IMG/VR virus record: IMGVR_UViG_2648501160_000003
Coordinates: 7,251-71,250 of that record
Direction: 5' to 3' (one strand)
DNA: 64,000 nt
From: a virus
Part shown: piece by piece, positions 10,793 to 12,297 of the stretch
Layout: every line of letters starts with the position of its first letter
Numbering within the stretch: position 1 is the stretch's first letter
Notes under the pieces: generated by a model
Databases searched by the model: none
What the model saw: the letters and a program-made list of their open reading frames with translations, nothing else
Told to the model about the DNA's origin: nothing
Program-made: the position numbers and the translations under genes

Positions 10793-11257
10793 CTAAACTG
10801 AAAATGGATACTCAATTGGGTCGTAATGCTCGTAACCTTCAACTACAAAGTCATCCACTGTTACCCATGTTTCTAGATCCTTCAGTGTTTTTATGTCAGG
10901 ATTAATGATTAACTTAGGATGCTCAAAAGGCACTCTTTGTAACTGCACATCTTTCAATAGATCAAATTGATTTTCGTAAATATGACTAGCCAGAAATACA
11001 TAGATCTGCTGAATATTGGCTACTAGCCCCAGAGGGACATCAACCGATCTAGATGTGCTCTTTAGAAATAACTCACCATCCAATTGTGAGAACTGATGGG
11101 AATGCATACAAGGTCTCAAACATCCCATACGGAATTCGCCTGGGTTGTAGTTGATAATCTTCCCTCTATCGTCAATTCCATATTTTAAGTCATAGACCAC
11201 TTTTGCCAATTGATCTATAATATTCCCATAGTGCATCTGTATGTCACGAGATCGCAC
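10793..11257 (-). CDS. truncated thymidylate-synthase-family paralogue (C-terminal domain only, internally deleted)
   Basis: 154 aa that align to the C-terminal half of the adjacent 283-aa TS-like protein (GCLRPCM, RS-x-DVPLGL, identical ...EYPFSV terminus). It lacks the N-terminal substrate-binding half and about 19 aa around the FN/folate region. Confidence 0.55.
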
Positions 11258-11268
11258 ACCATTTTACC

Positions 11269-11300
11269 TTTTGTCACTTTTTGGTGTCCATATGACAAAA
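11269..11300. promoter_or_regulatory. inverted repeat TTTTGTCA-N16-TGACAAAA in divergent intergenic region
   Basis: A perfect 8-bp inverted repeat between the divergently transcribed TS-like paralogues. Candidate operator. Confidence 0.3.
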
Positions 11301-11445
11301 AATGATTTACATAAACCATTATAGCCATAACCACTCCTGTCTACCATCAGGCACCAAGTAAGTCGAGTAAGAACTAGGAGTGTTTTGCTCGAATAATGGT
11401 TAGTTCCTTTGGTACAATTGAATAAAATAAATATAGGAATGAAAA

Positions 11446-12297
11446 GTGAAACAATATCTAGATTTATGCCAGCGCATTATAGATGAAGGCGTTTGGGTAA
11501 AGAACGAAAGAACAGGTAAACGTTGCCTAACAGTAATAAACGTAGATTTAACTTACGATGTCAGTTCTGGTGAGTTTCCTTTAGTAACGACACGTAAGAG
11601 CTACTGGAAAAGTGCCATTGCAGAAATTATTGGCTACCTTCGAGGCTATGATAATGCCGCAGACTTTAGAGCACTAGGCACTAAAACATGGGATGCAAAT
11701 GCCAATTTAAATGAGAGCTGGCTTGCGAATCCTCATAGAAAAGGGACAGATGACTGCGGTTTCATTTATGGAAAGGTTGCTAGAGCGTTCCCAAAACCTG
11801 ATGGTGGAGAGATAGATCTTGTAAAAAAAGTTGTTAACAACCTTAGTAAAGGCATTGATGACCGTAGCGAGAAAATAACATTCTATCATCCAGGTGCTTT
11901 TCATTTAGGCTGCTTACGTCCTTGTATGTATAGCCATCATTTCTCAATTTTAGGCGATACTCTGTATTTGAACAGCACACAGCGTTCTTGTGATGTACCG
12001 CTTGGCCTAAACTTCAACATGGTTCAATGCTACTTTTTGTTAGCGATCATGGCTCAAATTACAGGCTTAAAAGCGGGAAAAGCTTTTCACAAAATAGTAA
12101 ATGCACATATATACGAAGACCAATACGAGTTGATGCGTGATGTACAACTTAAACGTAAACCATTGAAATCGCCAACATTCCATATAAATCCAGATATTAA
12201 ATCTCTAGAGGACTTGGAAACTTGGGTTACTCTTGACGATTTCAGAGTAGAAGGTTATGAATATCACGAACCAATAGCTTACCCATTCTCAGTATGA
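11446..12297 (+). CDS. thymidylate synthase family protein (ThyA-like; possibly dUMP hydroxymethylase-type)
   Basis: MKQYLDL...[13 protein letters not shown]-terminus, LRPCM (PCH-like active-site Cys), [13 protein letters not shown] (RS-x-D and Asn consistent with uracil specificity). 283 aa. Confidence 0.8.

Follow-up and report, generated by a model that had tools for sequence, protein, structure and literature searches.

The window analysed here is a stretch of 64,000 nucleotides (nt; positions 7,251 to 71,250 of the IMG/VR record IMGVR_UViG_2648501160_000003) that carries a divergent pair of genes of the thymidylate synthase family: a long open reading frame (ORF) at 11446..12297 on the plus strand, encoding 283 amino acids (aa) and hereafter called thyA(+), and a short one at 10793..11257 on the minus strand, encoding 154 aa. 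The pair is very probably the decayed copy of a tyrosine-recombinase island that targets thyA and carries a thyA gene of its own, complete relatives of which interrupt the thyA gene of several Vibrio chromosomes. Accordingly, thyA(+) is regarded as the gene supplied by the island and the 154-aa ORF as what is left of the gene that the island interrupted; the replicon itself is a Vibrio megaplasmid of ~0.9 Mb, and belongs to a plasmid family rather than to a phage.

Both ORFs have a GTG start codon in the ORF listing and are separated by a spacer of 188 base pairs (bp; 11258-11445). In a BLASTP comparison the 154-aa protein aligns with residues 120-283 of the 283-aa protein at 54% identity (E = 5e-59), with one gap of 19 residues and another of a single residue, and the Pfam family PF00303 matches the 283-aa protein over its full length (246 bits) and the 154-aa protein in the C-terminal half only (87.6 bits). 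The initial annotation of this locus, made from the sequence alone, had described a full-length gene diverging from a truncated copy that covers just the C-terminal half and is about 19 residues short, and the present analysis agrees with it on each of these points. It had also noted a shared EYPFSV terminus; YPFSV is indeed common to the two proteins, but the Glu is not, the endings being IAYPFSV and IEYPFSV.

The same arrangement is present in Vibrio chromosomes. The 90%-identity cluster of the 283-aa protein includes sequences from V. kanaloae, V. parahaemolyticus, the V. harveyi group, V. owensii, V. anguillarum, V. metschnikovii, V. diabolicus and V. cholerae, and a minus-strand remnant, a spacer and thyA(+) occupy the canonical thyA locus in V. 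kanaloae, V. owensii, the V. parahaemolyticus/alginolyticus group, V. anguillarum, V. metschnikovii and V. cholerae. The gene order in every locus fetched is ileS-ribF-murJ-rpsT-HTH-LysR-Na/Pi transporter-(MATCAP), followed by the remnant, the spacer, thyA(+) and variable cargo. The chromosomal thyA 3' remnant lies on the opposite strand and retains 175 intact codons from Gly109, the spacer measures ~180 bp as in the window, and the terminal arm of the island in the window (11263..11445) is 88-96% identical to the island end of the Vibrio chromosomes. All the hosts and the window have the junction …GTGACAAAAGGTAAA|ATGGNGT…; its position within the Tyr-Gly-Val codons of the conserved IYG motif is the same to the nucleotide in the plasmid and in six chromosomal thyA genes. 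When genomes were scanned for the spacer end, that of V. owensii was the only relevant species-representative genome identified, and the element is therefore sporadic in its distribution.

Comparison of the two halves of the arrangement between species demonstrates that the module has been mobile. The remnants of different species are 74-87% identical at the nucleotide level, with a proportion of synonymous differences (pS) of 0.59-1.0 and a ratio of nonsynonymous to synonymous change (omega) of 0.01-0.03, and this divergence matches that of the flanking core genes for the Na/Pi transporter, RibF and the LysR regulator (69-89% identity). The thyA(+) copies of the same genomes are 94.5-100% identical (pS 0-0.2) and, with omega values of 0.04-0.10 between hosts, are under purifying selection; two genomes of the Harveyi clade have thyA(+) genes that are 100% identical and remnants that are 79% identical. 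Since thyA(+) is nearly uniform while the remnants diverge like core genes, the module was inserted repeatedly and independently at a fixed site, and the spread of one ancestral insertion by homologous recombination is rejected as the source of the chromosomal arrangements.

The far junction of the island was reached in V. alginolyticus AP023187.1 and in a V. metschnikovii contig. There, mutH-rppH-ptsP-TauE-lgt are followed by the initial 108 codons of the native thyA and these by the island genes, which encode proteins of 741 aa (242 + 514 in one strain), 708 aa and 192 aa (split into 117 + 66) and a tyrosine recombinase of 449 aa with matches to PF00589 and to Xer-type NCBIfam models. The far island end, GTTTTTGCCTTTTTCCCAATG…, is conserved between V. 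alginolyticus and V. metschnikovii, and the island measures 23.3 kb in the former and ~18.8 kb in the latter, giving a family of 18-23 kb. An 8-bp core, ATGGNGTT, occurs at both junctions in the two species; both copies read ATGGCGTT in V. metschnikovii, and they read ATGGAGTT and ATGGGGTT in V. alginolyticus, a difference that is expected if the central base falls in the overlap region of the recombinase. When the two host remnants are joined in silico across the core, an intact thyA of 283 codons is obtained in both species. The chromosomal relatives thus display the properties of a site-specific island, namely a recombinase inside the element, a fixed insertion point, a repeated core and an empty site that can be rebuilt, and integration is presumably catalysed by the 449-aa recombinase of the island.

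An origin of the pair without any site-specific step has also to be considered, in which homologous or illegitimate recombination, for example after transformation, exchanged the 5' part of the resident gene for a foreign thyA, and the shared junction goes back to one ancestral event spread by homologous recombination. The remnant in the window is a mosaic whose identity to the related plasmids drops towards the junction on both sides, and the right junction is microhomology-mediated, so that homologous exchange of the locus between plasmids clearly happens. However, a single event that then spread would have brought remnant DNA of the donor along, whereas each host is native up to the 8-bp core and the module next to it is near-identical; moreover, the core is duplicated at the far junction beside a tyrosine recombinase gene, and the host halves rejoin perfectly in silico. 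An origin of this kind is considered improbable.

The history of the locus on the plasmid can be followed by comparison with its relatives. Positions 10001-15500 of the window are 100% identical to CP007655.1 (896,006 bp; its thyA protein is listed as V. cholerae), and four plasmids of V. parahaemolyticus and V. vulnificus with sizes of 0.88-0.94 Mb are 94-96% identical to the region. A search of phage DNA gave no close relative of the region, phage thyA genes being at most 66% identical, and the replicon is assigned here to this plasmid family and not to a phage; the module was absent from other plasmids in PLSDB. The parts of the locus in the window are as follows.

10764..10787, minus strand: terminator-like hairpin between the thyA remnant and the ERCC4 gene (9661..10701); 10-bp stem with 5 GC pairs, T run after it
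10793..11262, minus strand: 3' remnant of the megaplasmid's own thyA, ~codons 109-283, including the 154-aa ORF
11255..11262, minus strand: 8-bp recombination core at the attR-type junction; minus strand ATGGTGTG, family consensus ATGGNGTT
11263..11445, plus strand: island terminal arm, with an inverted repeat, the thyA(+) 5' leader and a probable promoter of the extended -10 type
11270-11299: inverted repeat TTTTGTCA...TGACAAAA within the island terminal arm
11446..12297, plus strand: island-borne thyA(+), 283 aa, a canonical thymidylate synthase by sequence
12305..12329, plus strand: terminator-like hairpin of thyA(+); the conserved island-end module ends at ~12348
12349..12368, plus strand: left part of an island-internal conserved segment, split by the insertion sequence and ending in the target-adjacent TTGAA
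12369..14040, plus strand: TnpB-only insertion sequence of the IS200/IS605 type, 1672 bp; tnpB at 12526..13902, 458 aa
14041..14248, plus strand: right part of the island-internal segment, its final 7 bp being the microhomology TCTTTCT (14242-14248)
14238..14489, minus strand: pseudogene of an 82-aa ORF, with the start lost and two in-frame stops

The probable promoter in the island arm is an extended -10 element, TGGTACAAT, recognised by reading the sequence. Three states of the locus are distinguished, namely A with an intact thyA, B with the fragment and thyA(+), and C, that of the window, in which the TnpB element is added to B. On the minus strand of each of the four related plasmids, immediately upstream of the ERCC4 gene, lies a single intact thyA of 283 aa, whose start overlaps the 82-aa ORF. 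Window segments 7001-10984 and 14242-16386 match these plasmids at ~96%, and ~3 kb of the window (11263-14241) stands in for the first ~108 codons of their thyA. An exact search for the 283-aa protein led to sister plasmids that lack 12369..14040 but otherwise share 99-100% identity with the window, and the order of events is therefore A to B to C. At the site of insertion the state-A thyA reads ATGGAGTG, a 7/8 match to the core. The closest module is that of the V. cholerae chromosomal islands (96.5% nucleotide identity); the 208-bp tail that follows thyA(+) on the plasmid is 90% identical to a V. cholerae island segment situated 7.1 kb downstream of thyA(+), and a stretch of ~55 bp in it has a match in the V. 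metschnikovii island as well. The transition from this tail to plasmid DNA falls in the 7-bp microhomology TCTTTCT, 3 nt upstream of the codon at which thyA formerly started.

These observations are best accounted for by the following course of events. A Vibrio island of 18-23 kb would integrate in the coding sequence of thyA at the 8-bp core, splitting the host gene and placing the foreign thyA that it carries, a complete gene with a promoter and a terminator of its own, next to the host 3' half and in the opposite orientation, and the island gene would take over the synthesis of deoxythymidine monophosphate (dTMP). One such island would have entered the thyA of a ~0.9-Mb Vibrio megaplasmid lineage, where the cargo, the end with the recombinase and the 5' thyA remnant would have been lost by deletion, the last junction forming at the 7-bp microhomology. 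Passage of the disrupted allele among related plasmids by homologous recombination would account for the mosaic remnant, which would have lost 57 nt and 3 nt since, and a TnpB insertion sequence would later have landed 3' of TTGAA, just downstream of thyA(+).

Some observations weigh against such a history. The 64-kb window contains no recombinase gene, no far end of the island and no 5' remnant, and owing to the absence of the far end the integration into the plasmid is inferred from the junction and not seen complete. Beside the junction, the remnant shares only ~77% identity with thyA from the sampled related plasmids, with ~1.3 synonymous substitutions per synonymous site (dS), which places the plasmid lineage originally hit outside the sample. 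The exact attP junction, …GGTAAAATGGNGTTTTTGCC…, had no match in metagenome or viral collections, where its absence carries little weight, and a 19-mer of the island end had four chance matches, none of them with thyA, in the metagenome collection and no match in the viral one. Further, the frame of the fragment is still open and both its deletions are in frame, which is mildly unexpected for a dead gene.

The 154-aa ORF is the presumably non-functional 3' remnant of the plasmid's own thyA, as the alternative offered by the initial annotation, that of a remnant of a recombination event, had it: it is the 3' part of the plasmid gene, left behind when the thyA-bearing mobile island inserted. The remnant is 77% identical to the state-A thyA and only 60% to the Vibrio chromosomal remnants, and is hence of the plasmid type. 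Positions 10793 to ~10899 are 97-100% identical to the related plasmids, ~10900-11262 represent a divergent allele with identity down to 60-88%, and a weaker gradient of identity is seen on the other side of the insertion as well. Compared with the thyA of related plasmids, the proximal 88 codons show dS of ~1.3, omega of ~0.10 and 18/12/44 differences by codon position, while dS is ~0.1 in the distal codons and 0.04-0.19 in the flanking genes. The bias towards third positions, taken together with these dS and omega values, indicates that the proximal remnant is a divergent allele which was once functional, and rules out pseudogene decay as the cause of the 77% identity. The two in-frame deletions comprise 57 nt (between 10986/10987), which takes out 19 residues directly before the conserved His-x-Tyr, and 3 nt (between 11151/11152). 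No start codon is conserved across the hosts, for which gene callers return lengths of 130, 147, 154 or 158 aa, and the island end contributes an in-frame TAA ahead of the remnant.

A functional role for the fragment, as a truncated regulatory, decoy or dominant-negative subunit with the thymidylate synthase fold, had been raised as well. The 154 open codons with their in-frame deletions, the omega of ~0.1 relative to the related plasmid thyA and a promoter-like match just upstream at the island end would be in keeping with such a paralogue. However, the counterpart in six other hosts is the host's own 3' half, diverging like core genes, and the low omega of the fragment therefore reflects its history before the insertion. 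The lack of a conserved start codon, the TAA ahead of the remnant, the loss of 19 residues just before His-x-Tyr and the decay of the neighbouring 82-aa ORF are all contrary to a functional product, and the promoter match is no better than in shuffled sequence, 8 promoter-like matches being found and 6.4 expected. A paralogue with a function of its own is thus very unlikely, even more so than an origin of the pair without site-specific recombination. The further proposal that the fragment heads an operon with the ERCC4 gene is doubtful, because the terminator-like minus-strand hairpin (10787..10764) separates the stop codon of the fragment from that gene.

A few observations on the remnant and its surroundings may be recorded here. 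The promoter-like match mentioned above is TGGACA-18-TAAAAT (11290-11261, minus strand), which is aimed outwards into the remnant and overlaps the inverted repeat TTTTGTCA…TGACAAAA; it is a match to consensus only. The 82-aa ORF (14238-14489, minus strand), which overlaps the thyA start codon in the related plasmids, is a pseudogene in the window (65% aa identity) and seems to have decayed together with the old thyA. Between two of the state-A plasmids (loci L001 and L002), dS is 0.23 in thyA (0.6 in its middle third) versus 0.04-0.07 in the neighbouring genes, and the thyA locus appears to be a recombination hot spot in the megaplasmid family. Searches with the fragment as query also gave fragment-like thyA proteins of 128-130 aa, and two contexts among its matches were inspected: one is a frameshifted thyA beside a dihydrofolate reductase (DHFR) gene (locus L020), and a 92-aa match belongs to a phage thyA split by a GIY-YIG intron ORF (locus L021), so that neither represents the phenomenon seen in the window. 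In the latter, a phage-like metagenome contig, thyA is cut into 191 + 92 aa by a GIY-YIG/NUMOD3 ORF beside DHFR (8247-10279); this is a classic thyA homing intron, unrelated to the pair in the window.

The 283-aa product of thyA(+) is, as judged from its sequence, a canonical ThyA and predicted to be a working enzyme. It scores 555.4 bits against the NCBIfam ThyA equivalog NF002498 (cut-off 427) over residues 1-283 of 283, its best matches are all ThyA equivalogs and cellular ThyA, and it is 80-83% identical to the housekeeping ThyA of marine gammaproteobacteria (Amphritea, Neptuniibacter, Psychromonas, Photobacterium and many others). Alignment with an E. coli ThyA sequence shows that it keeps (E. 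coli numbering) Glu58 along with the catalytic Cys146 and all of the residues of the deoxyuridine monophosphate (dUMP) site, namely Arg21, Tyr94, Arg126, Arg166, Ser167, Asp169, Asn177, His207 and Tyr209. The departures from E. coli, His147 to Met and those at the equivalents of Trp83, Arg127 and Asp205, are all subfamily-wide. The P-C-M at the catalytic Cys and the uracil-specifying Asn (the equivalent of E. coli Asn177) pointed out in the initial annotation are both present; L-R-P-C-M occurs in 128/128 full-length homologues of the 283-aa subfamily, and P-C-M also in the native ThyA of the plasmid and in native Vibrio ThyA. Within the subfamily, thyA(+) is a member of a non-Vibrio clade and carries the motif IYGKVAR(A/N)F, as opposed to VYGVQGRAW in native Vibrio ThyA. 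In the Vibrio chromosomes with the island the native thyA is split, and thyA(+) is the only intact thyA found within the ~10-20 kb of locus sequence inspected. The gene resembles other members of the subfamily (NF002498, PF00303) in its full-length match over the cut-off, its catalytic Cys and its dUMP-binding Arg/Ser/Asp/Asn/His/Tyr, and is unlike them in residing on a mobile island and a plasmid and not at the lgt-thyA position.

These properties bear on the suggestion that the 283-aa protein is a hydroxymethylase, acting on dUMP or on deoxycytidine monophosphate (dCMP), for DNA hypermodification in a phage-like replicon. The suggestion draws on P-C-M in place of the P-C-H of E. coli, on folate-site positions unlike those of E. 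coli (the Trp83, Arg127 and Asp205 equivalents) and on surroundings rich in DNA metabolism genes (PolA, exonuclease, GIY-YIG, ERCC4). However, every one of these residue differences is common to the housekeeping ThyA of Amphritea and Photobacterium and to native Vibrio ThyA, the cut-off of the curated ThyA equivalog is exceeded, and the Asn in whose place dCMP enzymes have Asp is kept. The gene is the only intact thyA at the inspected locus of many Vibrio strains, and its replicon belongs to a plasmid family. Kinases, glycosyltransferases and other hypermodification families, which would be the expected partners, were looked for in 26 scanned ORFs of the window, itself 64 kb of ~896 kb, and none turned up. 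The protein falls firmly within canonical ThyA, a placement that the initial annotation had named beforehand as contrary to its own proposal, and of the explanations considered here hydroxymethylation is the one to which the least probability, close to none, is assigned.

The insertion sequence at 12369..14040 is a late passenger with no part in the origin of the pair. Its 458-aa TnpB scores 152 bits against NF040570 (cut-off 100) and has OrfB_IS605 and zinc-ribbon domains; the element lies 3' of TTGAA without a target duplication, and the exact empty site, TTGAA|TTAACTTACGTCC, is intact in the sister plasmids (locus L012). A near-identical site, TTGAT|TTGACTTACGTCC, is present in the V. metschnikovii island (locus L033, ~18200; TTGAT|TTGACTTACG…). 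In its domains, its location 3' of a TTGAT-like motif, the lack of a duplication and the empty site, the element agrees with the TnpB-only members of the IS200/IS605 group, which have an RNA-guided TnpB; TnpA is lacking, and an Rfam scan of 10500-15000 gave no match. The predicted guide-matching flank of the element is TTAACTTACGTCCTAACTCG, and the window holds a single copy.

The remaining genes of the chromosomal islands fall into a recombinase-proximal group and a variable cargo. The 741-, 708- and 192-aa proteins had no match in Pfam, NCBIfam, PADLOC or PDB sequences in sequence-level comparison, and their genes (locus L044, 5645-11936; locus L045, 12165-18456) are candidates for integration or transfer functions. 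GInt/Tn554-like elements have three tandem tyrosine recombinases and a small protein (PMC5385486); a triple recombinase of this type was considered for the island and rejected, as a recombinase signal was obtained, at the sequence level, only for the 449-aa protein and not for the 741- and 708-aa proteins. The cargo includes a PADLOC 'CARF6' candidate protein with an ORC/Cdc6-like ATPase and a metallophosphatase, AAA_15/MC4/CTD8 and DUF676 proteins, patatin, AbiH, UvrD, SIR2 and BrxR-like proteins and a recurrent HipA/HTH pair. The ORC/Cdc6-like, CARF-like, SIR2, AbiH and HipA cargo are candidate anti-phage genes. In Harveyi-group chromosomes (loci L034-L043), a block of CSD, 51-aa, 52-aa, 66-aa and CSD genes recurs among very different defence genes (EcoRII, resolvase, GmrSD, HEPN, Abi, Mrr), and may mark a modular exchange point within the islands.

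The plasmid region surrounding the pair has a guanine-cytosine (GC) content of ~35%, and no tRNA genes were found. The neighbouring genes encode PolA, an RNase T-like exonuclease, a GIY-YIG nuclease, PTH2 and an ERCC4/HhH nuclease. They form a DNA/RNA-metabolism cluster (5715-10701 and 18199-21844) that is conserved across the megaplasmid family and is an unusual gene set for a plasmid, with two homologues of the PTH2 peptidyl-tRNA hydrolase (7782..8507 and 18199..18528) beside the RNase T-like exonuclease, GIY-YIG, ERCC4+HhH and PolA proteins; the other ORFs around it are mostly without a family. A GC-rich patch at 45842-49146 (0.44 versus ~0.35 elsewhere) comprises a TnpB-like ORF with HTH_OrfB_IS605 (45842..47248) that runs directly into a group II intron reverse transcriptase/maturase (47242..49146), and may represent an intron inserted in or beside an insertion sequence. 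A third, shorter TnpB of 319 aa, with OrfB_IS605 and Cas12f1-like TNB domains, is located at 28643-29602.

Mobile elements that integrate inside a conserved gene and bring a substitute for the part displaced are known, examples being e14 and phage 21 in icd and the SXT/R391 elements in the 5' end of prfC. The thyA island resembles them in its tyrosine-recombinase integration at a short core within coding sequence, in the direct repeat at its ends, in the displaced gene piece that stays as a remnant and in the preservation of the function by DNA of the element. It is unlike them in that its target, at codon ~108 of 283, lies midway in an essential gene that is not repaired, and in that it supplies a whole divergent copy (76-78% aa identity to the host enzyme) which has a separate promoter and the opposite orientation. 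Group I introns with GIY-YIG homing endonucleases, such as I-TevI and I-BmoI, reside in the thyA or td genes of phages and bacteria. They too are mobile DNA aimed at the highly conserved thyA coding sequence that leaves thymidylate synthesis intact, whereas the island module has neither an intron nor a homing endonuclease, would be inserted by a recombinase at an 8-bp core, belongs to an element of 18-23 kb and leaves the host gene broken. The thyA island is thus a variant of the integrative islands that insert in conserved genes and repair the damage, and differs from them by its whole replacement gene.

A limited literature search found no paper on thyA-targeting islands or on the thyA locus of this megaplasmid family. 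We tentatively suggest, with slightly more doubt than confidence, that Vibrio islands with defence cargo integrate in the coding sequence of the catalytic core of thyA and keep the host alive by means of a xenologous thyA, whose own site, ATGGAAAG, differs from the core and may thereby escape self-targeting; that this strategy is one not found described; and that the window holds a relic of it. Host survival would then be tied to retention of the island unless excision is precise, and the island would be able to colonise any replicon that bears thyA, megaplasmids included.

For the locus with which this analysis began the outcome is a deflationary one, in that base hypermodification and a decoy subunit give way to an apparently working thymidylate synthase and a dead piece of a gene. 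It nevertheless leads to an island family in at least 6 Vibrio species, with >100 contigs indexed in the V. parahaemolyticus/harveyi group, whose members disrupt an essential gene at one fixed codon and carry the substitute for it with them. The family provides a defined attachment site and a single recognisable recombinase, possibly also a selectable integration system based on thyA, and a reason why Vibrio genomes are annotated with "two thyA genes" or "thyA fragments". The plasmid copy, in turn, suggests that such islands can move to an extrachromosomal thyA and then decay to the replacement gene alone.

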